The translations under genes were made by a program, and so were the position numbers. A stretch of DNA of 63,525 nucleotides, the filler included, from Phoronis australis (lineage: Eukaryota; Animalia; Phoronida), in NCBI GenBank assembly GCA_002633005.1. It is 7 parts of 7 records of this genome, joined end to end, with 100 filler letters (N's around TTAATTAATTAA, not from the genome) between each part and the next. Parts side by side here need not be neighbours in the genome. Positions count along the whole stretch, not along the records: positions 33,033 to 46,616 come from NMRA01001580.1; 6 more parts are not named here. One strand, written 5' to 3'. Numbering within the stretch: the first letter of the stretch is position 1; each line of letters begins with the position of its first letter. This document shows, in pieces, positions 6,001 through 48,315 of the stretch. The notes under the pieces were generated by a model. That model searched no databases, had not been told where the DNA came from, and was given only the letters and a program-made list of their open reading frames with translations.

Positions 6001-9000
6001 TTTGGTGGTAGTGGAGTGGCTCTGGTGGGGATAGGATGGTGTTAGGGTAAGGGGACATGATGGTGGTGATGGTGAGGTGGTGGGTGTGGTGAAGGTGGAG
6101 GGTATTGGATTAGCTGCTCTAGGTAGGGACGCCACTCCCTTCATTGGAGGCTGCCAGCAGAGTACCTTGAATCAATTTATGTGGTCGTAGTATACCTATA
6201 TGAGGTGTTGCAGGAAGAGACCAAGTGAGGGACGCTCTTAACAATTAACAAAGTTACAGCAGGACAAATATTGAAACATTTGAAGTTAAGGTTTAGTCTT
6301 TTAAAAAGTAGTCAAGATATTTCGTTAATCGAGGCTGTCTTGCATTTTACTTTTGAAGGCTTCTTGATGATATGATATCTTCAACAGACAGGACTAACCG
6401 AGCTAGGGTATTTGTTTAAGCAGATAAGCAAGGAGAAGTACAGTGGACTTGGATTGTGTCAAAAGTGGTTGTGGTGAGGTTTTGGTGGTTGTGGAGTGGT
6501 TCTGGTAGGGGTAGTGGTAGGGCTAAGGGAAGAAGACATGTGAATATAAAAGTAGTGTGGTTTGAGTGGCAATGATGACTGTAGTCATGGTGATCATGGA
6601 AAAGGTGGATGTGTAGATGGTGGAGTTTCGGGTGCTTGAAAAGTTGTTCCTCTTTCACGAAAACGCCTCGATGGTGGTTGGAGGGTCCTGATTATGTGGT
6701 TGTATGTGATGAGGAGGTAGTGAGGAGATTCGTAGCGGAAATGATGGTGACGCCAGTGGTGGTACTTTGGGCATTGGTGGTGTTTTGGGCATTGGTTGTG
6801 TTCTCGCTTTTGCTGAATCACCTCACTCTCACAACTTAGCTTAGGATACGGTGGGGTGGCAGTGATAAATATAGAGGTGGTGGTGCTACGGGTGAGGACA
6901 TGATGGTGGCGTGGTCGATATGAAGGAGGTGGACGTGTTTCATGAAATTTTAAGGGATCGGTGTCAGCTCCTCTAGGAAGGGTCGCTACTCCCTTTCACT
7001 GGAGGCTGCCAGTGGAGTACCTGAAAATAGAATAGGTGGTTATGGTAGGTCTACACAAAGCGTTGGCATTGGAAGGAGGTCCCAAAAGAATGACGTGTTT
7101 AGTGAAGCGGTGCAAATGCAACGGTTTAATTAGACCAGCAAAAGAGAACGTCAGACGTATTGAATGTCAATTTTCCATTGATCTGCACTTACTTGAAAAA
7201 AGATGTGGAAAACAGAATTTAAGGAAAGCAAAAAATTTGAAACATTTAAATTTTTGATTTACTGTTTGAACAAGCAATCGAGATCTTACGTTAAACAGGA
7301 CTGGCATTCATTATACTTTTGAAAATATCTTTAACAGAGAGGGCTGAGTTAGGGTACCTGAATACTCGGATAAGCAAGGGGACGAACAGTGAACTAGGAT
7401 CATGTCGAAAGTGGTCACGGTGAGGTTTTGGTTGTAGTGGAGTGGTTCTGGTGGGGGAAGTGGTGGAGTTACGAGAAAAGGACATGTGAACATAAAAATA
7501 GTGTTGTTGGAGTGGCAATCGTGATTGGAGTTATGGTGATCGTGGGAATGGCGATGGTGGTGTTTGCGGAGCTTGCCAAGTTTTCCAACTTCACAAAAAC
7601 GTTTTGATGGTGGTGTTGGGATGGTCGTGAAGAGGTAGTTTTGTCTGGGGGAGGTACTGATGATATGGGTGTTGGAAATGGTGGTGATACCAATGGTGAT
7701 ACTTTGGGCCATGTTTCTGTTTTGCACAATGGTTGTGATGTGGTATTTCCTTAATGCTTTTACAGTCACAGCATATTTTAGGAACTGGTCGGGTGGAAGT
7801 AGTGAGGGTATTCGTGGTGGTGCTACGGGGGGAGGACATGATGATGGCGTGGTGGAAATTAGGAAGGTGGACTTGTTCCATATAATTTGAAAGGAACGGT
7901 GTCAGCTTCTCTAGGAAAGGTCGCTACTCCCTTTCACTGGAGGCTGCCAGTGGAGTACCTGAAAATAGAATAGGTGCTTATGTTAGGTCTATACTAAGCG
8001 TTGCCGATGGAAGGAGAGCCCAAGTGAATGACGTGCTTAGCAAAGCTTTGAAAAGGAAATGGTCTAGTTAGACCAGCAAAAGGGAACTTTAAACGTATTG
8101 AATGTCAATTTCCTATTGATCTGCACTCACTCAAAAAAGATGTGTAACATAGAAAATACAGAAAGCCAATCATTGAAACTTTTAAATTTTAGATTTACTG
8201 TTTGAACTAGCAATCGAGACGTTAGGTTAGTTATGACTGGCTTTCATTTTACTTTTGAAAGTATCTTCAACAGATAGGGATAATTGAGCCAGGATATCTG
8301 TCTACTCGGATAAGCAAGGGGAAGCACAATGAATTAGGATCATGTCAAAAGTGGTCGCGGTGAGGTTTTGAGGGTAGTGGAGTGGTTCCGGTGGGGGTAG
8401 GATGGTGTCACGGGAAGGAGACATGATGGTGGTGATGGTGAGGTGGTGGGTGTGATGAAGGTGGAGGGAATTGGGTTAGCTTCTCTAGGTAGGGTCACCA
8501 CTCCGTTCACTCAAGACTGCCAGCAGTGTACCATGAAACAATTTATGTCGTCGCGGTAAACCTATATGAGGTGTGGCAGGAAGAGACTAAGTGAGGGACG
8601 CGCTTAGCAATAAACAAAATTACAGAAGGACCAATACTGAAATATTTGAAGTTAAGCTTTACTCTTTGAACAAGTAGTCAAGATATTTCGTTAAGCGAGG
8701 CGGTCTTGCATTTTGCTTTTGAAGGCTTCTTGATTAACTGATATCTTCAACAGACAGGGCTAACCGAGCTAGGATATCTGTCTAATCAGATAAGCAAAGA
8801 AAAGTGCACTGGGCTTGGATTATCTCAAAAGTGGTTGTGGTGAGGTTTTGGTGGTAGTGGAGTGGTTCTGGTGGGGGTAGTGGTAGGGCTAAAGGCAGAA
8901 GACATGTGAATGTAAAANTGGTGGTGGGATGGTCCTGATTATGTGGTTGTGTGTGATGGGGAGGTAGTGAGGAGATTCGTGGTGGAAATAGTGGTGAAGC

Positions 9001-11330
9001 CAATGTGGGCATTGGTGGTGTTTTGGGCATTGGCTCTGTTCTGGCTTTTGCTGAACTACCTCACTCTCACAACTTAGTTCAGGTATTGGTGGGATGGCAG
9101 TGGTGGGAATAGAGGTGGTGGGGCTACGGGGGAGGAAATGATGGTGGCGTGGTCGATATGAAGAAGGTGGACGAGTTTCATGTAATTTTAAGGGAGCAGT
9201 GTCAGCTCCTCTAGGAAGGGTCGCTACTCCCTTTCACTGGAGGCTGTCAGTGGAGTACCTGAGAATAGAATAGGTGGTCATGATAGGTCTATAATAAGCG
9301 TTGGCGTTGGAAGGGAGCCCAAGTGAATGTTGTGCTTAGCAAAGCAGTGCAAATGCAACGGTCTAGTTATTCCAGCAAAAGAGAACTTCAGACGTATTGA
9401 ATGTCAAATTTCGATTGATCTGCACTTACTCGAAAAAGATATTGAAATCAGAAATTACAGAAAGCCAAATATTGAAAGAATTAAATTTTAGATTTAGGGT
9501 TTGAACAAGCAATCGAGATGTTACGTGAAACAGGACTGGCTTTCATTATAGTTTTGAAAATATCTTCAACAGATAGGAATAATTGAGCCAGGATATCTGT
9601 CTACTCGGATAAGCGGGGGGAAGCATAATGAACTAGGATCATGTCAAAAGTGGTCGCGGTGAGGTTTTGGTGGTAGTGGACTGGTTCCAGCGGGGGTAGG
9701 ATGGTGTTACGGGAAGGGAATATGATGGTGCTGATGTTGAGGTGGTGGGTGTGGGGAAGGTGGAGAGAGTGGGGGTAGCTCCTCTAGGTAGGGTCGCCAC
9801 TCCCTTCACTGGAGGCTGCCAGCAGAGTACCTTCAAACAATTTATATGGTCGCGGTAGACCTATATCAGGTGTCGCAGGAACAGACAAGTGAGCGTTGCG
9901 CTTAGTGATTAACAAAATTACAGAAGGACAAATATTGAAATATTTGAAGTTAGCTTTACTCTTTCATCAAGTAGTCAAGATATTTCGTTAAACGAGGCTG
10001 TCTTGCATTTTTCTTTTGAAGGCTTCTTGATTAACTGATATCTTCAACAGACAGGGCTAACCGAGCTAGGATATCTGTCTATTCAGATAAGCAAGGAGAA
10101 ATGCAGTGGAGTTGGATTGTGTCAAAAATGGTAGTGGAGTGGTTCTGGTAGGGGTAGTGGTAGGGTTAAGGGAAGAAGACGTGTGAATATGAAAATAGTG
10201 TGGTTGGAGTGGCAATGCTGATTGTAGTTATGGTGATCTTGGAAAAGGTGAATATGGCGATGGCGGTGTTTTGGGTGCCTGCCAAGTTGTTCCTCTATCA
10301 CAAAAAGTCCTCGATGGTGGTGGGGTAGTCCTGATTATGTGGTTGTGTGTGATGGGGAGGTAGTGAGGAGATTCGTGGTGGAAATAGTGGTGAAGCCAAT
10401 GTGGGCATTGGTGGTGTTTTGGGCATTAGTTGTGTTCTGGCATTTGCTGAATCATCTAACTCTCACAACTTAGTTCAGGTATTGGTGGGATGGCAGTGGT
10501 GGGAATAGAGGTGGTGGTGCTACGGGGGAGGACATGATGGTGGCGTGGTGGATATGAAGAAGGTGGAAGAGTTTCATGTAATTTTAAGGGATCGGTGTCA
10601 GCTCCTCTAGGAAGGGTCGCTACTCCCTTTCACTGGAGGCTGCCAGTGGAGTGCCTGAAAATAGAATTGGTGGTAATGATAGGTCTATACTAAGCGTTGG
10701 CGTTGGAAGGAGAGACCAAGTCAATGACGTACTTTGCAAAGCGGTGCAAATGCAACGGTCTAGTTAGACCAGCAAAAGAGAATGTCAGACTATTGAATGT
10801 CAATTTTCTATTGATCTGCACTTACTCCAAAAAGATGTGGAAAACAGAAAATATAGAAAGCCAAACATTGAAACATTTAAATTTTAGATTTATTGTTTGA
10901 ACAAGCAATCGAGATATTACCTTAAACAGGATGGCTTTCATTTTACTTTTGAACATATCTTCAACAGATAGGGATAACTGAGCTAGGATATCTGTCTACG
11001 CGGATAAGCAAGGGGGAGCACAATGAACTAGGACTATGTCGAAAGTGGTTGTGGTGAGGTTTTTGTGGTAGTGGAGTGGTTCCTGTGGGGGTAGGATGGT
11101 GTTACGGGAAGGGGACATGATGGTGGTGATGGTGAGATGGTGGGCGTGGTGAAGGTGGAGAGAACTGGGTTAGCTCCTCTAGGTAGGTTCGCCACTCCGT
11201 TCACTGGACGCTGCCAGCAGAGTACCTTGAAACAATTTACTTTATCGCGGCAGTGCTTTACGAGGTGTTGCAGGGAGAGACCAAGTGAGGGACGTTCTTA
11301 TCAATTACACAATTACAGAAGGACAAAACA
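1..11330. repeat. Complex higher-order satellite array with long and short subunits (~1.4 kb dimer)
   Basis: The core CCCTT(T)CACTGGAGGCTGCCAG recurs at about 680, 1951, 2511, 4181, 5441, 6139, 6991, 7929, 8501, 9230, 9802, 10625 and 11197. Spacings are ~572 (long to short), ~825-850 (short to long) and ~938 bp (long to long). The motif GATATCTTCAACAGA..GAGCTAGGATATCTGTCT also recurs, and the + strand is GGT-rich. Confidence 0.95.
2623..3449. mobile_element. Non-autonomous Helentron-type element (HINE/DINE-1-like) inserted into the satellite
   Basis: It splits the satellite motif AACAA|AATTA(C/A)AGAAGGAC. Left hairpin ATTATTGTCAC/GTGACAATAAT (2633-2657). Subterminal inverted repeat ACTCTGCACGTG (2660-2671) vs CACGCGCAGAGT (~3433-3444). 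Right hairpin TACTCTGCGC/GCGCAGAGTA (3420-3445). AAGAAT-type microsatellite near the right end; A-rich insertion site with no TSD. Confidence 0.7.
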
Positions 11331-31878: not shown

Positions 31879-33353
31879 CTGTAATGAATGGGGTCAACAG
31901 ATTAGGCTGGACACAACCGACAGGCCAATGTGGACAGGACCAAGTGAACAGGGAGGACACATGGGCTAAACGACAACTGCACACTGAGAAATTCACCAAA
32001 CGGTACTAGCCAACGATCCAGTCTGTAAAAATGCGTATGAAACCCTTAGCCCACACTAGCGCTCCCTGGTGAACAGCCATCTGTTCCTCAGTCTATTCAA
32101 GTGACAAGAGGGGCCTTCTCCAACAGCACCACTGAGTGTATACTTTGTCACCCACGTGCATCTTTTGCATTAGTCAGGATTTTGAAGGTGTCGCGGCAAC
32201 CCCTACCCGCTATGTGGAACAGACCCACAAAACTATAGATGCACATGATGTCTGGGACCTGGAATGATGAACCCGAAGAGGAACACAAGACTCCAGGGCT
32301 TGTTGCTATGAAACTCCCTCCCTCCCGAGTCTCAACTTGGACAAAATCAACCTGTCAATACTCACCACAGCACTTCACCGAAACTTAAATTAAAAACGCA
32401 AACGATAGGAAATCAAAAAATTTCAAAATATGCACAAAAATATTATTTTTTACATTGCCCACAACATTATCTCTGCCCTTACCTGTTTAATACTAGCACA
32501 AAAACAATGCAGGCGGCTTCAAAAACAAGATGCAGAGAAAGTTTTATATGATAATCCGACAGTGTAATCGCACACTTGTGTCTGTTAGCATTAATCCTGG
32601 CCAAATGGTGATTGAAGACCCAAGCCTATCTCTAACCATTAGATCTGATCAAGGCCAATCAGATTATGTCACAACATCAGTTATGGCTGACATCCAGACG
32701 TGACTGATCTCTTGTTTACAACCAGAGAAACAAAAATGTGACATTTGAAGATGTCAAATAAACAAGACTTGCATAGGGTTCATGCCCATGTGAGCATCAC
32801 TGCTAGTTTTGGTGTAAACAGTCAATTAGAATCACTTAGTAAGATGGTGTTGTAGGTAATAGGCCATGATGCAGTGTTTAGTCACCCATAATGACATCTG
32901 CAGAGACTGTCATCAGTGTCTGTAAACTGTGCNNNNNNNNNNNNNNNNNNNNNNNNNNNNNNNNNNNNNNNNNNNNTTAATTAATTAANNNNNNNNNNNN
33001 NNNNNNNNNNNNNNNNNNNNNNNNNNNNNNNNCAGATAGGTCAGGAGAGTTCAACTCAGCTCGTAAGAATATGCCGGAGTTGCGAATCTGTTGTCTATAA
33101 TCTATGATAAGACAGAGAGACAGAGATCGTGTGACTCCGGAATTTAATAGTTTACAAAACAGCCACAGGCTTCGCATACCAGAAGTCAGCCATTACAATA
33201 ATGTCAGAAACGAAAACAGAACAGCTGTTCACCATGTTAGTGAGGTATTCAAAGCCGTATTCCTGGATTATATAAGGTCTGTGTTTTATTAAAAATGTGA
33301 CGTGACATGAATTTGTTGTTTGTTATTATTCTAACTGAGGTTTTAATTATTTC

Positions 33354-33609
33354 TGTTGTAATCGGCAACATCATTGGCCCTTTGTTTTTCCTGTGGCGTC
33401 TTGTGATTGGTCTGTTTTTGTGTGTTCCCCGTATGTAGGATATATAAGTCGTTGGCGCCACTGCCGGAAGGGTTTTTTTCAAGAACCGGCAATAGATATA
33501 CAAGTCCATGGTTGCTCCGCTTGGCGTCAACTGACTGACTGGCTGATATCTTCATAAAAGTAAGACAAGTACTCTTGTGCCTAACTAGTGAACCTGTAGG
33601 AATACAACA
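33354..33609 (+). repeat. 5' LTR of element A (256 bp)
   Basis: TGTTGTA...TACAACA terminal inverted repeat and TATATAA box. Very similar to 46306-46541 and less so to 40536-40779. Confidence 0.95.
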
Positions 33610-33611
33610 TT

Positions 33612-33625
33612 TGGCGTAGTCGGCA
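33612..33625 (+). promoter_or_regulatory. Primer-binding site, tRNA-Ser
   Basis: TGGCGTAGTCGGCA begins 2 nt after the LTR end and is complementary to the metazoan tRNA-Ser 3' end ...TGCCGACTACGCCA. Confidence 0.9.
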
Positions 33626-34299
33626 CTAGTTAGGGGTAACATAAGAGTATTTAACCGACTAGTTCAGACAGTCCACTTAGCGGCAATGATGCTTGATATA
33701 GACAGAAGAACGGTTATGCAGTGGAATTCGTATTTCCGTGACGAGTGTGGCCACAAATCCAAGACAGGTCGGTGGTCCTGGCATTAGAGTACAAATCAAT
33801 GAGTCTTCGATGACGTGCAGAAAGAATAACGTCGGCCACTCTGTACCAGCGCAGTGGATGTTTGGGGACTGTTACCCAACACAGGTTTTCAGATTTTTGG
33901 AACTGGTTCCTGATCAGTCCCACAGACACTGCTTCCAATCATACAGCATTACATAGCACTAGGGTCCATTCAGCCTAGTTCGGTCAAACGAGTAGGCTGT
34001 TTTGAATTTCCAAGAATGTCCTCTGGTGATTTTTTTTTACCTTGTAGTGAGCTTGATTATTGACCCTCGTCCTGAATATGATAAAGTTCAAGATCAAGAG
34101 CTGACTACTTTTAATGGTTCGTATAGAGGGACGAGAGTTAAAGCAGGCTTGTAACTGGGTTGGGTAGAACCAATCGCTGATGATGTTGATAATGTAGTAG
34201 TGCAATCTACAGGTGTCACTGCTATGTCCGAGAATGCTGATTCTTCGTCTGCCAGTCCCGATTCCTCTCAAGGGGGTAGTGCGGGGCTGTCAGCCGATG

Positions 34300-35446
34300 A
34301 GGATGGTTCCACCACTTTACCTCCAAAGCTGCTGTCACTTATTGAAACCTAAGACTGGCTTGTCTTCTAATGAGGCATCATTTCTTGAGAATCTCTTGTT
34401 AAGAGTATCCGGATGTGTTTGTGACTGACGATTTAGATCTGAGGAACTTTACAGCATTCGAACATGTCACCGTCACCAGCTCTGAACTTCCTGTCAAAAC
34501 AGCTACGAGGCGAACCCGTTTGTCTGTTTTGATTCGTAAGTCCGATGGTTCGGTGAGTTACTGTATTGACTACAGTGCTCCCAATAAATTACTAAAAAGG
34601 AAGCGTGGCCCCTTCCCTTGATTGATGAGTGTATCAACCTTCTATCTACTCCCTACCGACCCTCATCTGATGATCAGGTGGCAAAATTTAATCGTATATT
34701 GATGGATGCTGTGCGTTGTTGCATTTCCAATAGTCAGGATGACTGGGATCATTTCTTGCCGCAGATTGCATGTGCTATTATCAGGTCTTCAGTTAATAGG
34801 CAGACAGGTTACACTCCCAACATGCTTATGCTGGGCCGTGAGATATCCAGTTACTCTCATGTACCCAGTGGCATGAGGGCAGGACCCTGTTTCCCCTATT
34901 GATTTTGTTGACACTCTTCAAAAGAGAATTTCTAGTGTGCATGAAGTGGCCAGGAAGACCCTAGTCATTACCCAAGCTCGTATGAACCGCGATTACGACC
35001 TTGGGGCACATCGTCGTGATGTTGTATATATCATTGACACCGCGGTCATTAAAGGCAAACGTAAGAAACTAAGTCCACCTTGGAAAGGTCTTGGCATTGT
35101 TATTGATGTTTTTACGCCCTTTCTTTTCAGGATCTGACTTGAGAATTCTGTTTCTATGGTTAATCATGATCGTTTAAAGAGTTGTACTGATAAATTGGAA
35201 ACGTTGCCTAATTGGATTAAAAGGATGTTAGCTGTGGGTAATTCTACCAGTCCCCTTCTTGTTGATAACGACCTGTACTGTGTATGTCGCCGCCCGGATG
35301 ACGGAGGATTTATGATCCAATGTGATTCGTGCGATGAATGGTATCATGGTAGCTGTGTCGGAATAAACAGTGAGGTGGCGGCTACCATCGACAAATATTA
35401 TTGCCCTCGGTGCAAGCCTGTTAGGCGGTCTTACTTATCATGTTAA
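34300..35446 (+). pseudogene. pol: Element A pol remnant: RT N-terminus, deletion, then integrase C-terminal half with fused PHD finger
   Basis: DVFVTDDLDL..EH, VLIRKSDGSVSYCIDY and LIDECINLL (RT). At ~34646 it jumps to TPYRPSS...FNRILMD and PPWKG (IN, GPY/F), then in the same frame LYCVCRRPDDGGFMIQCDSCDEWYHGSCV...YYCPRC (C4HC3 PHD). Confidence 0.92.
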
Positions 35447-35755
35447 ATTGTTTTTATTTGTAGGTTCTCTTGTCAAGACGTAAGATTAAAGGAGAATCCC
35501 GACCTACCCGTTTTTAGGGGTAACGCAAATGCCCCTACTCAGGTAACGGTTTCAGCTGTGTCGGAATCAACAGTGAGGTGGCGGTAACCATCGACAAATA
35601 TTATTGCCCTCAGTGTAAGCCCACTAGGTGGTCTTATTCATCATGATTACTTGTTTTTATTTACTGGTTCTCTTGTCAAGATGAATGGTTAAAAGAAAAC
35701 CCTGATCTGCTAGTCTTCAAGGGCAATGCTAATGCCCCCAGTCAGGTAACAGTTG
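35351..35755 (+). repeat. Diverged 203-bp tandem duplication of the PHD 3' half and the accessory ORF start
   Basis: AGCTGTGTCGGAAT.AACAGTGAGGTGGCG at 35351 and 35554. Confidence 0.9.
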
Positions 35756-35965
35756 AAGCGGCCGTCGCCGTCATGCCAGTATCCCAGGGAGGGTATGCCG
35801 GTGCCGGTGCCATCTTTGGGTAATGGACCATTGACTTCAGTGGAAAGAGAAGGTCCAGTACCTCAGGAACCCTTCCACGCAATTCTCTTCAGAGGCGGAC
35901 CTGGACGATTCCATTTTGGATGATCCCGCGTCATCTGCCCCTGTGGCTTCAAAGTCTCGACCATT
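35464..35965 (+). pseudogene. Element A accessory ORF, N-terminal remnant (homolog of the TatD-ORF N-terminus in C)
   Basis: FSCQDVRLKENPDLP and EADLDDSILDDP match MFRCTDVRLKTNPDLP and ESDIDESVLDDDP of ORF 43588. Confidence 0.75.
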
Positions 35966-36030
35966 GGACAACTGTGAGTAGCACCGTGGAACCAATAGCC
36001 ACAATCTACAACATTTGGCGTAGCTGCAGT
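35966..36030 (+). repeat. Truncated 5' LTR (U5 stub) of element B plus degenerate tRNA-Ser PBS
   Basis: GGACAA..GTGAGTAGCACCGT.GAACCAATAGCCAC....TACAACA (ends 36013) matches 40039-40086 and is followed by TT-TGGCGTAG. Confidence 0.8.
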
Positions 36031-36314
36031 CAATGCTTGCGGTGCTTTCCCCTTGTTTACTTTCACCAGAGGCATTAAACTTAAAGTTCATAAAGTTAAG
36101 TTTCCGTCCCGGTACTACCCCATGGAGGGTGGTAACTGAAAACCACGTGGTTTCAGTTTTTCTTTAGACATTTTTGTACAGATGTACATATTTCCTTGTA
36201 CATATTATCATTTTTTAGTTTCATTATTGTTTTTTTTCCAGATGGTTAATTGTATAATTTAGTATTTTTCAGTAATTGTCTTAATTTCTCAGTGCCTTTA
36301 GAGCACCAATCACC

Positions 36315-37728
36315 ATGGCATCTAAGATCCTTATCAATTCTTGTGATGCTACAACACTGTTAGACCTTCCAGGTATGACTACTGATGTTGCTGCTGCAGT
36401 TATTTACTTCAGGGCAGTGTCAGCGATTACACCGGATAATATTACTAAGATACATTCCGCTTGGAAGCCGACCAAAACGATGCATAAACACATCGACTTC
36501 TCCATCCCATCTTGTCTGCCGGAAGATTTGGCTAAAGTTACAGAGTTGGTCGACAATTATGGTAAGGAAACACCATCGAAAATGGTTTCAGCTCCTGTTT
36601 CTTTTCCAAAATTGGCAACTAAATTTACCCCATCCAAGACCAATATTGCTACTGGTGGTGCTTAAGAAAAGACAACCTCATCTCCACATACTAGCATGTC
36701 ATTTAAGCCGTCGGGGTCTTCAGCTAATTACCTACAACATGCTCCATGCAACCTAACTTTCAGTGGTATGCTAGGCACCTGGGAAGATTTTTTCTGGAAG
36801 TTTGAAAATGTTGCCAAAGGTAACTGTTGGCCTAGCCAAAAGTGCCGTACTGAATTAGGTATGTGCTTAGAAGGAGATGCTTCTCGTTGGTTCGCCAACC
36901 ATATCAGAGCTTTAACAGATGCATCTTACAAACAGATCATCAAAGATATGACATATTGCTTTGGTGCAGAAATCAAGTGTAACGAAGTACACCAGCTTAT
37001 ATTTCAGTCAGCCAAACAAACTCCTGATGAGTCGCTTGAGCAATGAGCTGACCGCTTAACCAGTTTATTTTTATTAGCTTTTCCAGATGCTAGGGACTCT
37101 TGACAAAGATCAGGCTGTCCTTCGTTTCCGCTTGGGTTTGAAGGACAGAGATGTTGCTCAATGGACAATAAATAGTAAACCGGAATCAGTCATGGAGGCT
37201 TTGAATGCCACACGATGGTTTTCAACCACCAAAGACCTTATGACACAGTCGAGACCAACCAAGACTGTTTCTTTCTGTAGGGAAACCTTTTCAGAGGAAG
37301 AGGAGGAAGAAGTCTCGGTCCGTCAGTTAAATAAGAAGCCCACTCTTAAATTCATTCCTCGTGGCTCTTTAGAGTCTCGTTTAGATGTTCTTGAGGGTAG
37401 GTGCAACGATTTGGATACATCGGTTTCATTCCTCAAGACTGATAATATTAAACTTCACAAGAAAGTTGATGAGTTGAAATCTGACCTGTCTAAATCTCGT
37501 GCTGAAGTATCAAGCAATTTTAATAAGTTGTTTGCAATGTTGCAGTCACAGTCGCCGAAGCGACCTTCTCCGTCTTCGCCAAGAGCTTCGCCATATTCAT
37601 CTCCGGGAAGACCGTCTACTCTTCCTAGGTGTTTCAGGTGTGGTAAACTGGGGCATTACCAGTCAAGCTGTAGGAGTTCTCCAGTGGCGGCTCGACAAAT
37701 GTTCCTAGGTGACGAAGATTTAAAATGA
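36315..37728 (+). pseudogene. gag: Element B gag with N-terminal helix-hairpin-helix, capsid-like region, coiled coil and CCHC zinc knuckle
   Basis: INSCDATTLLDLPGM (HhH-like); TFSG..GTWEDF.WKFE...W...LEGDA (Gypsy capsid); CFRCGKLGHYQSSC. Broken by frameshifts at ~36660 and ~37100 and by a TGA at 37044. Confidence 0.9.
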
Positions 37729-37761
37729 TAGGGGCTGGGGGACAAGGTCTAATCCCAGTCC
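37719..37761 (+). promoter_or_regulatory. Putative -1 ribosomal frameshift signal between gag and pol
   Basis: Slippery heptamer T TTA AAA directly before the gag TGA, followed by a GGGCTGGG/CCCAGTCC stem. The -1 frame stays open for ~25 codons. Confidence 0.55.
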
Positions 37762-38172
37762 GTGCCAAGTCCAAAGACTTCCCTGATACTAAAACATAGT
37801 TGGTCTGTTGGGTTACATGAAGAAACACACGCATAATTCTTCAAAGTCTTGCAGTTCAACCAATAGTTCAGTTCTTAAAACTGCTGAATCGTGTACTCAG
37901 ACTAGTGAGTTACCTGTTGCTTTAACTGATGAAGTCGTGCCTGTACATAGTTCCGCTAACAGAGCTGAAGTATCAGACTCATTGGTTTCCGCTAATAGTT
38001 TCATTCCTCAGAATGTTGTAAGTAGTTTCACCTGACCTCCCACCAACTCCAGGGGAGCTGTCTCAGGTTCAACCGGCTGAGGCGTTGGGTGTGGCTGTTG
38101 TGTTATTCCTACGATACCAACTGTGGACCCTGTTCTGGAAAGATATAGATAACGAAAACTGCTCCTGGGAGT

Positions 38173-39490
38173 ATGTACTACATACCTATCATCATCAACG
38201 GTACAAGTATCAGTGTGGTTATTGATTGTGGTGCGGATAGAACTATTATCTCTCACCGGTTGTTCAAACTATTGACTGATGTGGTGTTTTCTCATGACAT
38301 CAATGTCCATACTGCTGGCGAAGATCTATCTAAGAAAGGTTTCTGCACTAAACCTGTCACTTTATCGATAGGTGACCAGTTGTATCAATCTTCGGTAGTT
38401 GTGGCCAACATCAGCGATGATTGCCTTTTATGCCTTGATTTAATGAAGCAGTTATTGATATGAAATCAGATTCCATAACTTTCGCTGACAAGACCTTAGT
38501 TATGAATTATGGAGTTCCTAGTAAATACCAGCCTTCTGTTAAGCTGTCAAAAGGTGTCGATATTCCAGCAAATATGGTTAAGCGAGTGGACTGTATAACT
38601 TGTCCAACACAGTATATTTTGAACCAAGCTTAACCATTGGCTCTCGAGTTATGATCCCTCGAGCTCTGCTTAATACGGAAATCTCCCCAGTTTTATTTAT
38701 TTTCAATTCTTCGGAGCACCATGTCAAGTTGAAGGCTGACTCTGTCTTGGGTTACTTAGATTACATGGAAGACTGGGAAGAGTGTCCTGTGGACCGGCCG
38801 CCTACCTAAGAGAGTGAAACTGTCGTCAAGCAACTGTCTGCCGGTTCTGGTGATTCATCTGTTGGTGTAAGTCCAGTGAGTGAACTTCCTGAAAAGGTGG
38901 ACAGTCTGTATAACAAACCTAAAGATTTACTAACTGAGGGACAATCGTCTAAACTGTATCAATTATTACTAAGTTAGTCAGACGTTTTTGTAGCAGACGA
39001 CCTTGATCTTGGTAATTTTACAGCAGTTGAGCACAGTGTTGACACAGGCGATGCCCAACCTATCAAAATGGCTATGCGGCGTACACCAAGATGTTTTGTG
39101 GCAGAAGAAGAGAGTCCCCTTAACAAGATGCTTAAAGCTGGTGTAATTGTTCCTTCTTCTAGCGAATGGGCTGCAGATCCTGTTCTGATTCGTAAAAAAT
39201 TGATGGGTCAGTTTGTTACTACATTGATTATAGAAAACTGAATAATGTCACTAGAAAAGATTCATGGCCTTTACCTCTCATTGATGAGTGTATTGACTTA
39301 CTGTCTGATAACAAGTGGTTCAGTAAGCTAGATGCCAATTCTGCCTATTGGCAAGTTAAAATCCATGAAACCACATATGGGTTATTTGAGTTCAATGCCA
39401 TTTGGACTCTGTGGTGCGTCTTCTACGTTTTCCAGAGGAATGAGTTTAGTTCTCAGAGGTTTAAATTGGCACACAGTTCTTGCATTTTTA
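38173..39490 (+). pseudogene. pol: Element B pol remnant: aspartic protease and RT N-terminal half, truncated just before the catalytic DD
   Basis: VVIDCGADRTII (protease); IDYRKLNNVTRKDSWPLPLIDEC, FSKLDANSAYWQV and MPFGLCGASSTF..M..VLRGL.W..VLAFL (RT). Multiple stops and frameshifts. Confidence 0.92.
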
Positions 39491-39826
39491 GTACAAAGTA
39501 GTCTAGTTAACAGTTAGGGTACTAGACCTGCCAGTTTCTTTAGTTCATTTTTTGTTTTTTTCTTGTTTTGACTTTTTGCCATGGTAATGGCTCAGTTTTT
39601 CTAAGGTTTTATAATTTAGTTTAGTACCCACAGTCACATTGTTTTTTTATAAATAGTTTAGTTTACCGGACACCATAGTTTTGTACTAACTTGTCTCCTT
39701 TATCGAGGCTGTTAGTCCACTAACTGTCATTTAGATAGGGAGGGAGGAGTAGTTATAGTTTTTTTAGTTTTCTTTTTCACATTCACTCCTCCTTAGTTTT
39801 TTTCAATGAGTTTGTTAGTCAATTTT

Positions 39827-39840
39827 AGGGAGGGGAGGAG
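39827..39840 (+). promoter_or_regulatory. Polypurine tract of element B
   Basis: AGGGAGGGGAGGAG directly abuts TGTTGT at 39841. Confidence 0.85.
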
Positions 39841-40086
39841 TGTTGTGAACTTAGGTAGGTACTTGTTGTTGTGCCTCAATGCGTCTGTCCTTGGTCGTCT
39901 GAGTGTTTATGGTGGACCGGATGTAGTTCATAGTTTATATCACGTGAATGGGGAAATGCTGGACCTGCTCGTGTCGTCCTTCCTGAGTGAAGGACGTGTA
40001 TTCAACGCCTATATAAGTGTAAAGACAAGTCAAGAAATGGACAATGGTGAGTAGCACCGTCGAACCAATAGCCACTAATTACAACA
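39841..40086 (+). repeat. 3' LTR of element B (246 bp, distinct LTR family)
   Basis: TGTTGT...ACAACA termini, TATATAA box and upstream PPT; its 3' end matches the stub at 35966-36013. Confidence 0.85.
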
Positions 40087-40535
40087 GTACCCATGGAGGT
40101 GAGAGATGAGGAGACACCCCAAAAACCAAAAAAATCTTCAAAAGGGGGTCCAGTAGTCTTCCAAACACCGTAAGGCTGGTCCGGAGACTTTTCCTGCTCC
40201 TCCACAACAAAGCGACGTCATTTCTTGCCCTCTTTGTGGTTTCCACGTTCCTGGAGACCACAGTGGTAAGTGCGAGGCACACAACATACATTTAGATTGT
40301 ATTTTAATACTGTGGCGTCTCTATGTTGTGATGTCCTTTTCGTTAAACGATGTTGGTCTTGGCCTGGTGCGACACCTGACGCCAGAAGTGCCCAGCAGAG
40401 GTCACCCTGTCATCACGTGACCTGTCACCTCTCAAGACCACGTGACAAGATCGTCTGGGACTTCTGGAGTTCGCTGCCGTCTTGTGCGGACATTATGACC
40501 ACGCGAGTACACTCTAGACTTTACTCTGACACTAT
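40087..40535 (+). pseudogene. Continuation of the element A accessory ORF after the B insertion
   Basis: QQSDVISCPLCGFHVP (~40205-40252) is homologous to QPTDQYQCPLCPFTVP in element C. Confidence 0.6.
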
Positions 40536-40779
40536 TGTTGTAATCGGCAACATCATTGGCCCTTTGTTTTTCCTGTGGCGTCCTATGATTGGTCTGTTTT
40601 TATGTGTTCCCCGTATGTCCCTTATATAAGTCGTTGGCGCCACTGTCGGATGGGTTTTTTTCACGAAGAACCAGCAAGTCGTCCATGTTTGTACAGCTTG
40701 ACGTCAACTAGGACAGACTTAACCATCTTCAAATGTAAGTACTCTTGTGCCGAACTAGCGAACCTGTAGGAATACAACA
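40536..40779 (+). repeat. 5' LTR of element C (244 bp)
   Basis: TGTTGTA...TACAACA termini, homology to the A LTR, no upstream PPT, followed by a PBS. Confidence 0.95.
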
Positions 40780-40781
40780 TT

Positions 40782-40795
40782 TGGCGTAGTCGGCA
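40782..40795 (+). promoter_or_regulatory. Primer-binding site, tRNA-Ser
   Basis: TGGCGTAGTCGGCA. Confidence 0.9.
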
Positions 40796-41170
40796 CTAGT
40801 TAGGGTTATCATAAGAGTATTTGACCGACTAGTTCAGACGGCTTTTAACTGTCCAGGGCTTTTTCTATGATCCGGGGGGAAAGTTGGAGAATTTAGTCGG
40901 TGCCGTGCTAACAGGTGGTTAGTACCGTGGCAAACGGGTTCTTGGTCTTTAGGTATAGGTTGTTTTAGGTTGTTTGGGCCTTATTTTGGGGTTTTTGAGG
41001 TTTATTTTTGGGTCTTTGGTATTTTGGGGTTTAGTTGCCGGTTCGAAGTGGGTGTGGTTCCCTTTTGACTTGAGTCACGTGGTAGGCAGTGTTTTGGTTA
41101 CAAACGCCAATTCATTCCCTTACTTTTAGCCCTTCTATAACGTATATATATTGGCCTTTGATAGCCAACC

Positions 41171-42155
41171 ATGTCAGTAGGTTTCACAATTCCCATTAAC
41201 TACTGCCATGAGTCGGACTTGTTAGATTTGCCGGGAGTTGACGAGGAAATCGTCCTGCAAATAGTTGACTTCCGGGAGAGGTATCCTATCGATCGTCACA
41301 ATATTTACCAGATATCTGATGATTGGGGAGTGACCAGCTTGGTGACTGACCGGGTGGATTATTCCTTAACCCCCAGTTCAGGTTCTCGAAACTATGATTT
41401 GCCAGCGGGGTTAGCTCAAGTGGCTGACGCTTGCGACAGGCTGAATAGATCCCCTAGTCCTCATTTGGGTAGAACCTCTAGGTACCGAGGGGGCTCCCGA
41501 TACCAGGTCGATGAGGGTAGGCGCGACAGTGGCATAAGTCCCGGCGTTTATACTCCTTCTAGTAGGCGAAGAGGGTATTCGGGAAATGTAGGAGGTAGGA
41601 GTAACAGTGGTCTGGATCCCGACGCTTTTATTTCTCCTGTTAGCCCAAGGGAGTACTGGGGAAATAGAGAGGGAAGGCGCGACAGAGGCGGAAGTCCCGG
41701 CGCAAGAAATGCCAGGGGGTATAAAGTGGACTCGCATGCTCCTAATAATTTAGTTTTCAAGGGCTTGCGAAATACCTGGAAAGATTTCCACTGGAAGTTT
41801 AGCCGTTTTGCTAGGGAAAACTTCTGGTCTGGTGATAAATGTTTAGCAGAGCTAAGTCTTTGCTGTGAAGGGGATGCACTCCGCTTTCTTTGTAATTTTA
41901 CAGAAAGTTGGCCAGAGGCATTGTATGACGAAGTAGTGGAAACAATGAGAAAACGTTTTGGTGTTGCTTCAGGGGTGCCAGGAGTAGACCAACTACAATT
42001 TCACTCTGTGTCCCAAAAACAAGCCGAGTCCTTACATCAATGAGCTGACAGGCTGAATCATCTGTATTTTTCGGCCTTTCCAAACCCCTCAGATGGTGAC
42101 CGCCATCTGGCCATACTCAGGTTTTGTTTGGGGTTAAGTGATCAGGATATAGGCA
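41171..42155 (+). pseudogene. gag: Element C gag with N-terminal helix-hairpin-helix, Arg/Gly/Ser-rich linker and capsid-like region; C-terminus deleted
   Basis: IPINYCHESDLLDLPGVDEEIVLQIVDFRERY; VFKG..TWKDF.WKF...W...CEGDAL. Homology to the B gag continues past the TGA at 42041 (ADRL...AFP...AILRFCLGLSD). Confidence 0.9.
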
Positions 42156-43634
42156 AGCAGAGGGAGGACACAAATCTGACTTTCCTATTTGACTGGTAAT
42201 ATAATGGTGTTGAACTTTCACAATTCCGCTTATTTATCGCCAGCGCTACGGCCAAAAACTATTGGCTCAATAGGGAGCGGTTTGTTGTGTCAAATAATTT
42301 ATTATATTGGAAGGCTCCAGATAAGGAGGATACTCTAAAATTAGTAGTGCCCGAGTCCTGCAAGTCAGATATTATAAAGCATTGTCATGACTTACCCTCC
42401 GCGGGTCACCAGGGAATTGACCGTACCAAAGCGAAGTTGAAAGATAAGTAGTTTTGGCGTGGTATGGCCGCGAGTATAAAATCTTATATTGAAACATGTG
42501 CTGGCTGTAATTTAAATAAGCAAGGTAGAGGCCGCTATGGTAAGTTTCCCTTAACTACATTCCATGCAGGGGTGCCCATGGAACGCGTCCATTTAGATTT
42601 CCTGGGTCCGCTCCCTGTATCCGATCAGGGCAATGAATATATCCTCATGATGGTAGACCAGTTCACCAAGTGGGTGGAATGTGTAGCCCTCCCGTCGCAG
42701 ACGGCAGAGGTCACGGCGAACGCTGCAGTGGGCCAGTTCTTTAGTAGATTTGGGTTCCCATTGCAGGTGTTTACCGATCAGGGACGAAATTTTGAAAGTC
42801 ACTTGTTCCGTCATATTTGTTCCCTTTTAAAAATCAAAAAAACAAGAACGACTGCGTATAGGCCCTCTTCTAATGGACAATGTGAGCGATTCAATCGTAC
42901 CCTTATGGATGCAATACGGTGTTATGTCAGTAGTTTCCAGACTGATTGGGATATGTATTTACTCCAAATTGATGGTGCTATCCGGTCTTGTGTTAATCGT
43001 CATACTGGCTTTACAGCTAATAAAATGATGCTGGGTCGGGAAATAATTCAGCCAGTAGACCTCATGTATCCACCGCCCTTACAGGATGCTGAGGACCCAA
43101 TAGGTTATGTGAACCGGCTCAGTAAAGCGATTACTCAAACTCACGAGATAGCTAGAGGAACATTGCAGACTACCCAAGCTGTTATGAAACGCGATTATGA
43201 TGTGTCTATGGTCAAACGTTCATATAGTATTGGAGATTTAGTCTATGTCCTTGATTCAGCTAGCGTTAAGGGGAAGTGTAAAAAACTATTACCCCCTTGG
43301 AAAGGGCCGGCCATTGTTCTCGAGGTCATTACTCCCTATCTATTTCGAATTAGGCATGAGAATTTTGTGTCGGTAGTCAATCATGACCGTCTGAAACTCT
43401 GTAAGGATAGGTTTCAAGACCTACCTATCTGGCTTAAGAGAATGATCCAGGTAAATTCCACAGTGAACCGAGATAGTCTAGCAGAAGACATACTGTTTTT
43501 GTAGGAGACCTGATCATGGCGGGTTCATGATTGCTTGTGACGTATGTGATGAGTGGTATCATGGGGAATGTGTAAGCATTACCACTGATGACGCACTGCA
43601 CATTGACTGGTACATCTGTCCTAGTTGTGAATGA
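42156..43634 (+). pseudogene. pol: Element C integrase (HHCC, DDE, GPY/F) with C-terminal PHD finger
   Basis: CHDLPSAGH...CAGC; HLDFLGP, FTDQG, QCERFN; PPWKGP. After a +1 shift at ~43490: YCFCRRPDHGGFMIACDVCDEWYHGECV...YICPSCE* (43491-43634). In-frame stops at ~42197 and ~42449. Confidence 0.93.
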
Positions 43635-43656
43635 CATTTGCTTTGCAATACTTCAG

Positions 43657-45665
43657 ATGTTTCGATGTACAGATGTGAGGTTGAAGACGAATCCGGACTT
43701 ACCTTGCATTACCGACATTCCAAGTGAGCGGGAGGACTCTACGCAGCCCCCGCCTCAACCAAGGGAGGAAGATCAATCCCCGGTGCAAGAGGTGTCCGTT
43801 ATAGCAGCAAATACGGGGGAATCAGACATCGACGAGTCTGTCTTAGACGACGACCCGGTCGTAATGGTCTCACCCCCACGGCCTATTAGTGTAAATGTGC
43901 CCCTGTCAACCCCCGCAGATTTTCTTACCAGTCCTTCGTCCCCTATGATGGTAGATTCTGCGGTAGTGTCAACAGGTTCCGCAACTACGCCGCTGGCTTC
44001 GCTTGGTGAGTCTATTTGGGCCCTTCCCGAATACTCCCACGGAGTGCAGATGGCAGAAGCCTTGTTACAACCCACTGATCAATATCAGTGTCCCCTGTGC
44101 CCCTTTACCGTTCCTCTCGGTGAAGATGAACTGTTGTGCAAACATATTTTCGCATGTCATCTGCCACCCTTGTTTTCAACTAACCAGGCTGACGTGGTTG
44201 CCAGCCCTCAGCTTCATCGAGAGAGATACGACTCTTTGGCCTATCTTTTTTCATTGTTGGAGGGACGTAGCATGAAAGACTCGTTAGATCTTGTAGACAG
44301 GTGTAACCTGGTATGCCGAGGCTTGAGCCAGCTGCCACGGGTACTCCCCCTGGATCAAATGGCGATGTCCGTAATGTCTACCACATTTGGCTGGGACAGA
44401 GTGCCGAGTTTCACGTTAGACTCAACTCGCCAGCCGCCTGCTTCCACTGGTATGTGATCACTCTTCTGCTCCAAAAATTACCAGAGAGTGACCGTGCCCG
44501 ATGGTTTGTAAGTGCACATAATGTGAGGCTCCCTCAGTCCTTCTTGGACTCCTTGTCCGGAGAGGTCGGACCAACGTCCTTTATAACCCCAAGGCCTCAG
44601 ACCTCTACTTCAGCCCCTTCACCCCCTAAAAGACCACGGACTTATGCCCAGGTTGCTTCCTGTCCTGAGGCTCAGTCTGCACCGCTCCCTCCTGTACCAT
44701 CGGCGCCGGCAACTACCTCCTCGGCGAAACGATCCGCTAAACTGCCATCTTTGTATGGTCCCCAGTCGACCGCTAATCCGCAGCCTGCTGCATCCGCCCC
44801 AAAGCCAGAGGCAGTCGATTCGCATTTCCAACTAGATCGACTGACCTTCGCGTGCCAACGGTTTTCCCCCGAATTGGCCGGCCGACTACTTACCATCCCC
44901 GAGATCACGAATATGACGGCCATGCTCCCGTGCCCCTCAAAAAATCCAGTCCATTTAACAGGGGGCATAGCGGTATTTTGTGATCCGATTCACTATAAGC
45001 TTGTGGAGAAATCCACGGAGGCGTTCCCTTCGGGTTGGAAGGCTGCCATAGGCATCCATCCGAAAAACGCCATGTCGTACAATCCGGCCATGGAGAAGGA
45101 GATTTTCAGGCTCCTCCGGTTGCCCAACGTTGTTGCACTAGGTGAGTTGGGATTAGAAGAAGGCCACGGTAGCGGTGAAGTACAGCAGCGAGTAGTCGTG
45201 TCGCTGGTGCGCGGTCTTGCCCGCTTCCAGACGGTTCACGGCACTCGTGTGCTTGTATTGCACCTTCGCGCCTGGGAGTCCACTTCACCCTTTCACTCTG
45301 GTCATCAGTACATGAGACGGTTGCTGAGTGACGTTCTGCCCAGAGCCCAACCAATCCACCTCCATTGTTTTTCCAGTAATCCCCAGGAGGTGTGATCATG
45401 GATGAAGGCTTTCCCAAATGACTATTTCGGCTTTGCTGCCACTGCTCGCCACTTTTCCTCTCCCCAAGCTAAAGCTTTGGCAGCCGTACCCCTTAATCGG
45501 CTTCTTTTAGAGACCGATTCCCCCCATTTAGCGACGTCCTCTCGACCTATGGCCCCATATTTCATTGGGGAAGTGGCCTGGAAAATAGCACGCCTGCGTC
45601 ACTGTAATGCTGACTATTTATTGGAGCACTCGGCCAAGAACGCACGTGTTTTATACCGATTGTAA
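43657..45665 (+). pseudogene. tatD: Retrotransposon accessory ORF: acidic/Pro-rich N-terminus, CxxC..H..H motif, C-terminal TatD-family nuclease (44811-45665)
   Basis: TatD motifs in order: VDSHFQL, AIGIHP, VVALGELGLE, LVLHLR, HLHCFS, YFGF, VPLNRLLLETDSPHL. One frameshift (~44420) and one in-frame TGA (45393). Lies between pol and the PPT/3' LTR. Confidence 0.9.
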
Positions 45666-45745
45666 GTCCGGAGAGGGTCTCTAGTGAGTATTTCTACCAC
45701 TAGGTGTCTGCTCTCCCATCCAGGGGGGTGGGTGGTTCCCCATAN

Positions 45746-46043
45746 CTCGCCACTTTTCCTCTCCCCAAGCTAAAGCTTTGGCAGCCGTACCCCTTAATCG
45801 GCTTCTTTTAGAGACCGATTCCCCCCATTTAGCGACGTCCTCTCGACCTATGGCCCCATATTTCATTGGGGAAGTGGCCTGGAAAATAGCACGCCTGCGT
45901 CACTGTAATGCTGACTATTTATTGGAGCACTCGGCCAAGAACGCACGTGTTTTATACCGATTGTAAGTCCGGAGAGGGTCTCTAGTGAGTATTTCTACCA
46001 CTAGGTGTCTGCTCTCCCATCCAGGGGGGTGGGTGGTTCCCCA
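45746..46043 (+). other. Apparently identical duplicate of 45446-45743 across a single N (probable assembly overlap artefact)
   Basis: ~300-bp copy separated by one N at 45745; no mismatches noticed. Confidence 0.75.
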
Positions 46044-46291
46044 TAAGGGTGACTATTTATTATTTATTTCATGTGTTCAAGGGTGCTGGCTCTTTGAACT
46101 TCTATATTATTTGATGATACTTCTGTTCTTAACCCATGTGTATTATGCTCTCATTCTAGGGGAACTGTCCTTGTGCTACCAACACGCTGAATTTTCTTCT
46201 TTTTTGGAGGGGGGAGGAGGATCAAAAATTTTCGGGCATTTTTTGATAAATTGGCAATGATGTTGTTTCCCGGGTGGGTCCCACGATTTTT

Positions 46292-46305
46292 AGGGAGGAG
46301 GGGAA
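46292..46305 (+). promoter_or_regulatory. Polypurine tract
   Basis: AGGGAGGAGGGGAA abuts the LTR start. Confidence 0.9.
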
Positions 46306-46541
46306 TGTTGTAATCGGCAACATCATTGGCCCTTTGTTTTTCCTGTGGCGTCTTGTGATTGGTCTGTTTTTGTGTGTTCCCCATATGTATGCTATATAAG
46401 TCGTTGGCGCCACTGCCGGACGGGTTTTTTTCAAGAACCGGCATATACAAGTCTATGGTTGCTCCGCTTGGCGTCAACTGACTGACTGGCTGATATCTTC
46501 ATAAAAGTAAGTACTCTTGTGCCTAACTAGTGAACCTGTAG
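46306..46541 (+). repeat. 3' LTR (A-type), missing the last ~10 bp
   Basis: Near-identical to 33354-33599; ends at GAACCTGTAG without GAATACAACA. Confidence 0.93.
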
Positions 46542-48315
46542 TAGCGAGGACAGCATTCTTCAGCGAATCGCTTCGCGTATCTGTCACCGTGTTAAATTCG
46601 CTCACTACAATCGGCANNNNNNNNNNNNNNNNNNNNNNNNNNNNNNNNNNNNNNNNNNNNTTAATTAATTAANNNNNNNNNNNNNNNNNNNNNNNNNNNN
46701 NNNNNNNNNNNNNNNNTGACAAAAATCTCAGCTCGCATTTCCAAATTTCAGGTCGCAAATGCGACCTGCAGCTCGTTATGTCGAGCCCTGATGATGCAAT
46801 TAGTAAACCTATACATTTGCATATTCATATGTACTAACTTGTATAATGTTATCAAATATATGCCAAAGTATCAGGTTGTTGCCGTCAATAGCTGATATGG
46901 CATGTCATATACCTTCAATATTGTTCAATATTGTTATCTGGAGTGACAAAAATGAAAAAGCCATGGTCACCACGTTAGAAATGTAGCCAGACTGCGGAAT
47001 TTTTCTCTGATTTTCCTTAATAACAATTTTCCATAAAAACACTTCACAGTCAGTTACCACCTAGTTTTCACAATGGCCATCAAAGTATTTATTGATTTGT
47101 AGATTTCTCCGGGGCTGTAATCACTTTATACAGGAATACTCAAGGGATTTTATACTCTTTTTGTCTTCAGATCTCCATGACATCACATTCTTGACTTCCT
47201 GATGTTTTACAACTGATATGATACAGCGTATTGAAAGTCTAAACCTATTAGAACTGGTGATTTATTCCATTACTTAAAGCTTCGGCTAGGTTGACGTGGG
47301 TAACGAAAATATGAATTTTTTTCCCAAACACTTGCGCTTTAATTAGTAGCCAAAGGAGTGACACTTGTGCTGAGGTGTTGTTGGTGGTATGAGTTACCCC
47401 AGGACTGCTGGTGTTTTCTTAGCACTTCTGTTTGTAGCCAATACTTTTATTTTCAGGGACATGCATGCCCTTTGTGGAGGTTGTTACAAGATCACTGCAG
47501 TAATACCGTAATCGTTCGGGTTAACGCCCTGGGTGGTTAAATTGGCGAGTCCAAAAAATCGGGGGAGGGCGGTTAACCGAGCAGTGGGCGGTTAAATCGA
47601 AAATCCACCTAAAGTAGGGGATGGGCGGTTAACCGAACATGGGCGCTTATTACGACAGACAACCGCCCTGGGCGGTTAATCTTACCTGGCGATCTAAATC
47701 CCGACACGGCAATCATACTCGGAACGCGTAGCCCTTTTCAAAGAGCTTTATCGTCACGTCGCCAAATGACTGTGAAAACGTCATAACAGCGGATGATCCC
47801 AACAAAGGTTCTCTTGCCCTCAGAGTAGTCATTTACAATTAATTTTACAAAATTGCTGAGTAATAGCCGTCCTGCGGTGCGCAGACGACCAGTCACCACT
47901 AGAATTAAAACTGTTTCAAGATGTTAATCTGCTTAAGTGCGCGCGTGCAAGCTTCACGTGTTTCAGAGGTCAGACATCAAATTTATGGTTACAGTCTCGT
48001 GCTATATGTAGCTGTCAAGTTCTGAGTCAGACAGCAGTTTTAAAATTGGTTGTAATAAAAGTTTGAAAAACTTAACTCTGCTGTTTTTTTGTGTTGGGGA
48101 TGTTATAGTCGACACTCCATGACTCAATGACATTTTCGGCGTATGGTTCTGTGGCTAGCTGTCTTATGTCGACAGCCCGGCATTGCTCTTTTGCCGTTGC
48201 GCCAAACATGCTATGCAAAGAAGTAAGACAAGGATCGGGGGTGGTCGAGCCAGCCGTCGATCAAGAATAAAATTGCAAGCAACTGCATAAATATGTTACA
48301 AAATGTCAGAAAACA

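Follow-up and report, generated by a model that had tools for sequence, protein, structure and literature searches.

The TatD-like gene at positions 43657–45665 of the Phoronis australis DNA analysed here (the window, 63,525 nt in all, a series of stretches with N spacers between them) is almost certainly a decayed copy of the third gene (ORF3) of a Ty3/gypsy retrotransposon lineage, in which a zinc-finger/helical domain is fused to a TatD nuclease. An earlier note on this DNA had proposed that TatD belongs to the element as an extra gene, and the large, conserved clade of element-borne relatives described below bears this out.

The retrotransposon locus

Positions 33033–46616 hold three related LTRs and two decayed, rearranged gypsy bodies (elements A and B), with the following features:

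33354..33609, + strand: LTR1, with a primer-binding site next to it; 94% identity to LTR3 across 246 nt
35465..35960, + strand: element A, what is left of the 5' end of ORF3, immediately after a PHD finger; this PHD-remnant arrangement occurs twice, without TatD
40205..40252, + strand: element A, weak match to the finger of ORF3 at a collinear CPLC motif (tblastn E 0.29; 0/300 shuffles)
40536..40779, + strand: LTR2, with a primer-binding site next to it; 83–84% identity to LTR1 and LTR3
41165..42040, + strand: decayed gag-like remnant of element B, recognized by position and by eye, without a Pfam match
42140..43441, + strand: decayed integrase of element B (PF00665, E 1e-13); 50% identity to the pol of the complete relative L001
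43491..43634, + strand: PHD finger at the pol end of element B (PF00628, E 5.4e-12)
43640..43656, + strand: putative splice acceptor, CAG immediately 5' of the ORF3 ATG
43657..45665, + strand: ORF3, in which a first linker leads to the C2H2-like finger and helical domain and a second one to TatD; frameshift near 44416, stop at 45393
44089..44510, + strand: C2H2-like finger with helical domain, specific to the family and interrupted by the frameshift (profile matches at E 3.6e-5 and 0.0035; predicted fold of a relative)
44808..45662, + strand: TatD TIM-barrel domain of the element-borne clade (PF01026, profile, tree, fold of a relative)
45746..46045, + strand: exact duplicate of 45445–45744 (100% identical), preceded by a single N at 45745
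46292..46305, + strand: polypurine tract (PPT) between ORF3 and LTR3
46306..46541, + strand: LTR3, the 3' LTR, diverging at its 3' end before a sequence gap; a donor-like GTAAGT lies at 46507

Element B thus runs from the gag-like remnant through integrase, PHD finger and ORF3 to the polypurine tract and LTR, with PR, RT and RNase H deleted between the gag remnant and the integrase. Of the pol gene that the earlier note had placed upstream of TatD, the integrase and PHD finger are there, and pol is truncated to those two. A PHD finger closes pol in all six elements examined. Since LTR3 is 94% identical to LTR1 and 83% to LTR2, the locus is a mosaic in which a target-site duplication is unreadable; it is rearranged, and the end of LTR3 diverges just short of the sequence gap.

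Element A retains four short collinear pieces of the 5' part of ORF3, each with a score reached by 0–7 of 300 shuffles, and no TatD domain was found when one was looked for there. The homolog of the N-terminal region reported earlier for this element consequently stands as short collinear remnants that include CPLC (tblastn E 0.29), without TatD. Between 39820 and 40533 lie a further polypurine tract with TGTTG start, at about 39843, and, near 40400–40491, a repeat of high read depth, which indicates that element A is itself a mosaic of several elements. The start of its gag (36285–36662) has a weak helix-hairpin-helix match (E 0.005). Elsewhere, positions 1–11300 of the window hold a big array of diverged repeats of about 0.9–1.4 kb with strong GC skew, unrelated to ORF3.

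Domains and decay of the ORF3 copy

With X in place of the stop, the translation of 44808–45662 matches the Pfam profile PF01026 at E 1.2e-26 (94 bits, cut-off 27), so that the TatD motif series seen earlier does lie after integrase-PHD and before the PPT and LTR. The motifs DSHFQLD, GIHP, GELG, HLR, HLHCF and LETD are all present, and the GELG Glu, both His and the ETD Asp are retained, as is the HFQ reading, in line with the earlier description. The N-terminal region, put at about 380 residues before, measures 384 codons. Both coding lesions noted previously are found, namely the stop at 45393 and the frameshift near 44416, up to which the N-terminal-domain profile matches in one frame before resuming in another.

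Same-species RNA reads differ from the window at the stop (34 of 36 reads), show an indel at the frameshift (23 of 32) and differ at the Gln of HFQ (27 of 27). As these reads are mostly 90–99% alike to the window, they derive from other copies of the element, and a DNA run agrees with them that the breaks are absent from other copies. The stop, the frameshift and HFQ are private to the window copy. The second copy of the TatD 3' end (300 nt, 45746–46045) is probably an assembly artefact, a DNA contig passing directly into the sequence beyond it.

A diverse family with a conserved metal site

Word-based searches gave 57 matches, among them six proteins at E <1e-24, and 13 of 14 long matches, to which a profile added 15. 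HMMER searches against 50%-identity clusters were followed to the best 150 matches, reaching E 4e-66; all 139 new rows among these belong to one clade of 165 rows (FastTree 97). P0007, a 310-aa TatD on a long branch between the element clade and host proteins, is among the best 150 yet falls outside this clade. Named members come from a bivalve (Pinctada), gastropods (Haliotis, Elysia), sea urchins (Lytechinus, Strongylocentrotus, Diadema), a starfish (Acanthaster) and a hemichordate (Ptychodera), i.e., three phyla, and clusters of 27, 17 and 12 members suggest multicopy elements.

Among these best 150 matches, all six metal ligands are kept in 118 of the 127 scorable members. The HxH histidines are present in 128/128 and 126/128 covered members, the GExG Glu in 145/150, the two further His in 147/150 each, and the ETD Asp in 145/149. 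The family is a Group II (HxH) TatD by sequence, and kinship with Group I, to which E. coli TatD belongs, was rejected on this ground; the parallel drawn earlier between the window copy and E. coli TatD, which lacks the HxH pair, falls away, HFQ being private to the copy. Across elements, TatD identity is 31–44% compared with 53–68% for the integrase, and DNA pairs of relatives are saturated. Ligands conserved despite such divergence argue for selection on the metal site, so that ORF3 likely encodes a functional nuclease that has long been kept.

The finger plus helical domain was detected in 82 of the 85 members among the best 150 that have at least 180 upstream residues, and in none of six host and 50 prokaryotic proteins, with a profile built from family members. 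PF01026 was the only Pfam match on the ORF3 proteins scanned, without a DEDDy/RNase D domain. A hydrophobic stretch (19-residue hydropathy mean >2.0) occurs in only two of 62 long members; an env function for ORF3 was rejected, the transmembrane stretch being missing in the other 60. Of 57 long members, 28 have basic clusters ahead of the finger, a raw count without a control. Several members are candidates for domestication: P0098 and P0099, both from Lytechinus pictus; P0204, which has no finger domain and shares an altered HCF motif with P0098; and the Haliotis P0184 cluster, which comprises similar proteins in two species.

Element context of the relatives

Genomic context was read from nine clade loci with DNA (L001–L007, L047 and L081; L002, L005, L007 and L047 were placed by similarity rather than by tree) and one gene model only. 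Two collection scans, covering 9 of 64 parts of each collection, gave mostly bacterial TatD, with clade loci making up 8 of 80 and 1 of 80. Seven of the nine clade loci have LTR-element features; the other two, L002 and L007, are contigs of 1.0 and 1.6 kb and too short. Integrase and PHD stand immediately upstream in five of the nine, and a PPT followed by TG lies downstream in six; none was found in the remaining 584 nt of L004. L001, whose assembly is circular, is a complete element with gag, pol (1414 aa, PR-RT-RH-INT-PHD), an open ORF3 of about 690 aa, PPT, LTR and PBS. In L006, an LTR-like pair of 150 nt (98% identical) flanks ORF3. The Acanthaster gene model P0097 joins integrase, PHD and TatD.

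L006, in which the stretches of note are 242–592 and 3867–4016, lacks pol, and within the clade its TatD branches off deepest. Gypsy integrase-PHD-TatD DNA or proteins also occur in symbiont MAGs (L081, in a GTDB MAG labelled Sedimenticola; P0005, P0078, P0082, P0109 and P0259). Clade DNA in these bacterial MAGs, where it is labelled 'TatD family hydrolase', is likely host contamination; a bacterial origin of these sequences was rejected, L081 carrying integrase, PHD and PPT. Four TatD loci were found on viral contigs, where L161 and L164 group with the prokaryotic rows and the match figures of L162 and L163 equal those of L161.

Predicted structure

The structure was modelled for ORF3 of L001, an intact relative of the window copy, with a mean pLDDT of 79.5 and three confident domains: a helical bundle (residues ~22–105), the finger with helices (~196–345) and the TatD barrel. 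The model matches YcfH, TatD and TATDN structures at E 5.6e-12 to 3.5e-8. The best solved-structure matches are 1YIX, 2GZX and 6L25 (sequence E 4.8e-35; fold E 5.6e-12, TM 0.79 on the target). The extra helical domain of about 85 residues that many relatives have at the start of ORF3 (L001 residues 23–110) is confidently folded and has 12 matches, and is missing from the window's family. Foldseek searches of the N-terminal domains against PDB and BFVD returned no match at E ≤0.001, and a VIA search gave at best Z 7.5 to generic helical repeats, for residues 1–98 only, the finger/helical domain being barely covered. That these domains have no clear structural match is no evidence for a new fold.

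Origin and phylogeny

The tree comparison with host and prokaryotic TatDs that the earlier note had called for places the element-borne proteins in a clade of their own. In a tree of 76 rows, the 27 element rows form one side (99/86, starred), and the element rows together with six animal proteins and P0007 are split from 42 prokaryotic rows (99/97, starred). In a tree of 30 rows, the clade (15 rows) has 100/98 (starred), the hosts 92/90, and clade plus hosts 93/94 (not starred). Forcing the window sequence to group with the six host proteins was rejected (p-AU 0.00065). The root is assumed, and the host set of six proteins covers molluscs, arthropods and a single unnamed source, without TATDN1, TATDN3 or a deuterostome TATDN2; the tick protein P0101 (a garbled model), ten near-duplicates and half of the bacterial proteins were left out of the trees.

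We call the hosts TATDN2-like because one of them is so named, because they have long N-termini and HxH, and because their grouping follows phylum. The name by itself is not a reliable guide, since members of the element clade also bear it. Against PDB, the family profile scores YcfH at 4.8e-35, TATDN3 at 1.5e-12 and TATDN1 at 8.9e-11. The clade appears, from sequence comparison, to be a sister group to the animal TATDN2-like genes rather than an orthologue of host TATDN2, and may work like TATDN2. Its position as sister to mollusc and arthropod proteins suggests an old capture of a TATDN2-like gene, for which long branches or horizontal spread among marine hosts may be an alternative explanation.

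Expression and splicing

Three RNA runs from one study (X6, X7 and X8) were examined at about 19% of each run, or some nine reads deep. In X8, with the first mate on the minus strand, ORF3 is covered at depths of 4.7–14.8, compared with 0–1.6 for gag-integrase. LTR2 is also covered in X8, by reads whose loose ends match the PPT side, which identifies them as reads of the 3' LTR. If the library is of the dUTP type (the strand convention is assumed, without a control gene), this pattern corresponds to a sense subgenomic RNA that extends from about 43600–43660 to the 3' LTR. In X6 and X7, ORF3 is covered on both strands and gag-integrase (40758–43621) mostly on the opposite strand, probably from antisense transcription of the family.

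A CAG stands 0–7 nt 5' of the ORF3 ATG in all six elements against a background of 18% of ATGs, counted on CAG alone and within a range picked after the data had been seen; under a strict polypyrimidine filter, an acceptor-like site precedes ORF3 in three of the six. In the LTRs of the window, L001, L003 and L006, donor-like GT(A/G)AG sites lie 140–200 nt past the LTR start. The 5' LTR copy of L006 ends exactly at the GTGAG donor of its 3' copy, and beyond it comes a piece with similarity to CHRAC-16 (E 0.005), which is probably a host exon taken up when the LTR donor was used for splicing; L006 thus appears to record use of its LTR donor. No spliced LTR-to-ORF3 read and no loose end at 43657 were listed at the sampled depth of X6–X8. 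The acceptor and the LTR donors point to splicing, from which we infer that ORF3 would be expressed from a spliced subgenomic RNA; an internal promoter would also fit the gradual rise of coverage from about 43600.

Proposed function and alternative explanations

The role that we consider best, with a prospect only somewhat short of even, is that of a 3' nuclease of TATDN2-like type, acting in trans, which would remove the RNA of R-loops formed at element loci. A Ty3/gypsy lineage would anciently have captured a TATDN2-like animal gene and fused it to a zinc-finger/helical domain. The product would be made outside the polyprotein from a subgenomic, probably spliced RNA, and would act in trans, in the nucleus and not in the particle. 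Its substrate, if human TATDN2 is a guide, would be the RNA in R-loops, and its N-terminal domains would supply targeting, much as the TATDN2 N-terminus serves R-loop binding. The element might benefit in that its loci would be transcribed more smoothly and be less subject to RNA-guided silencing, and that the host genome would suffer less damage. A nuclear R-loop or RNA nuclease is favoured by the TATDN2-like sister group, the position outside the polyprotein, the missing membrane anchor and the PHD-bearing integrase; the analogy for substrate and benefit draws on one human paralogue with 26–31% identity to the sampled host proteins.

According to the accessible parts of PMC10711561, TATDN2 degrades R-loop RNA with the same Glu residues, needs its N-terminus for binding, spares the DNA strands of R-loops, and acts as a 3' exo- and endonuclease on hairpin RNA. 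The portions of PMC10085689 available describe the human TATDNs as nuclear, and TATDN1, TATDN3 and the E. coli TatDs as DNA 3' exonucleases and AP endonucleases.

ORF3 could instead counter silencing, as a nuclease that would shorten or degrade the small RNAs, or the antisense precursor RNA, directed against the element, which we consider possible but doubtful. The opposite-strand reads over gag-integrase in X6 and X7 are those expected of antisense silencing substrates, ORF3 is covered apart from gag-pol, and the lower identity of TatD relative to integrase (31–44% and 53–68%) resembles host conflict; however, divergence faster than that of integrase is usual in accessory genes, and piRNA 3' ends, being 2'-O-methylated and protein-bound, count against this activity. 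The action of TATDN2 on hairpin RNA as a 3' exo- and endonuclease would also suit it (PMC10711561, in part). A role on element cDNA, in which ORF3 would either be packaged and proofread or polish ends as a 3'-5' exonuclease, or serve as an AP endonuclease in the repair of damaged cDNA or of the integration site, seems to us about as doubtful. Reverse transcriptases are without proofreading, which counts for such a role, and the His and Glu needed are each kept in 145 of 150 members; yet ORF3 is a separate frame outside the polyprotein, X8 covers it while leaving gag-integrase nearly bare, and integration leaves 5' flaps, to which a 3' exonuclease is unsuited. Flap trimming at integration, raised in the earlier note, is for the same reason a poor fit for 3'-5' exonucleases and AP endonucleases, as the known TatDs are in the accessible text of PMC10085689. 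The DNA activity of TATDN1, TATDN3 and the E. coli TatDs favours a cDNA role (PMC10085689, in part), but the nearest hosts are TATDN2-like, and human TATDN2 spared the DNA of R-loops in the parts available of PMC10711561.

Other explanations loosen the tie to the element. That service to the host, or a toxin-like selfish action, is the main reason why the gene persists, with many members domesticated and the retrotransposon link secondary, is improbable: Lytechinus, Haliotis and Ptychodera members are annotated as chromosomal host genes, and P0204, P0198 and P0216 have no finger domain, but every clade locus with enough flank shows LTR features (7/9), and clusters reach 27, 17 and 12 members. 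The intronless, broken window copy could by itself be taken for a neutral recent retrocopy of a host TatD gene that came by chance to lie in an element, yet this is hardly credible, as host grouping was rejected (p-AU 0.00065), other copies are without the breaks (34/36 reads at the stop, 23/32 at the frameshift), and ORF3 occupies the same position in unrelated elements. The single neutral processed host copy that the earlier note had set against its own proposal is likewise contradicted by the element-borne clade and the same AU test. 

A more far-reaching account than the role put forward above is tentative and clearly below an even chance: a gypsy lineage would have taken a TATDN2-like nuclease before the mollusc-arthropod split, fused to it two folded domains that lack a clear structural match, and kept it with an intact active site and separate expression in hundreds of families of protostomes and deuterostomes, as an R-loop- or RNA-clearing enzyme against silencing or genome damage.

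Comparison with known systems

Open literature yielded no description of TatD in retrotransposons; Repbase and subscription journals were outside the scope, and an earlier annotation is possible. Within the accessible text of each paper, TATDN2 appears in PMC5408686 only as a human TATDN2 retrocopy, the matched term in PMC6962438 is only a gene label, the TatD term is absent from PMC8220671 and PMC13524379, and PMC12709183 contains none of the sought terms. Many 'TATDN2', 'YcfH-like' and 'TatD family hydrolase' labels in mollusc and echinoderm genomes and in Thiodiazotropha and Sedimenticola MAGs probably denote transposon genes or host-DNA contamination.

The env-type ORF3 of errantiviruses and retroviruses sits between pol and the 3' LTR. 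The TatD ORF3 shares this position and an apparent LTR donor and acceptor, but is a predicted enzyme rather than a fusogen, 60 of 62 long members being without a transmembrane stretch. Bacterial YcfH and TatD give the best structure matches, but are single-domain cellular enzymes on the other side of the tree. Animal TATDN2 is alike in its Group II HxH, GExG Glu, ETD and long N-terminal extension (PMC10711561 and PMC10085689, in part), and in being the sister group in the trees; it differs in that ORF3 is element-borne, multicopy and in a separate clade, with folded helical and C2H2-like domains where the sources, as far as available, give TATDN2 a disordered region.

The closest parallel in the literature is an ORF3 of DEDDy type in the bdelloid rotifer retrotransposons Juno and Vesta. 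In the available parts of PMC5408684, it too follows pol in the env position as a 3'-5' nuclease with its catalytic residues kept, forms a clade apart from cellular homologues and has an unproven function. That ORF3 has an RNase D/DnaQ fold rather than a TatD TIM barrel (TatD occurs nowhere in those parts), and is reported from one animal class, with acquisition in recent branches, whereas the TatD ORF3 is found in three phyla and has N-terminal domains of its own. Few animal LTR retrotransposons carry an enzyme in the env position, and for none of these enzymes is a demonstrated function known. The TatD ORF3 appears old, is highly diverse and retains its active site, and R-loop activity is known for its host sister, TATDN2; these traits make the role of an accessory nuclease for a retrotransposon directly testable with naturally intact proteins.
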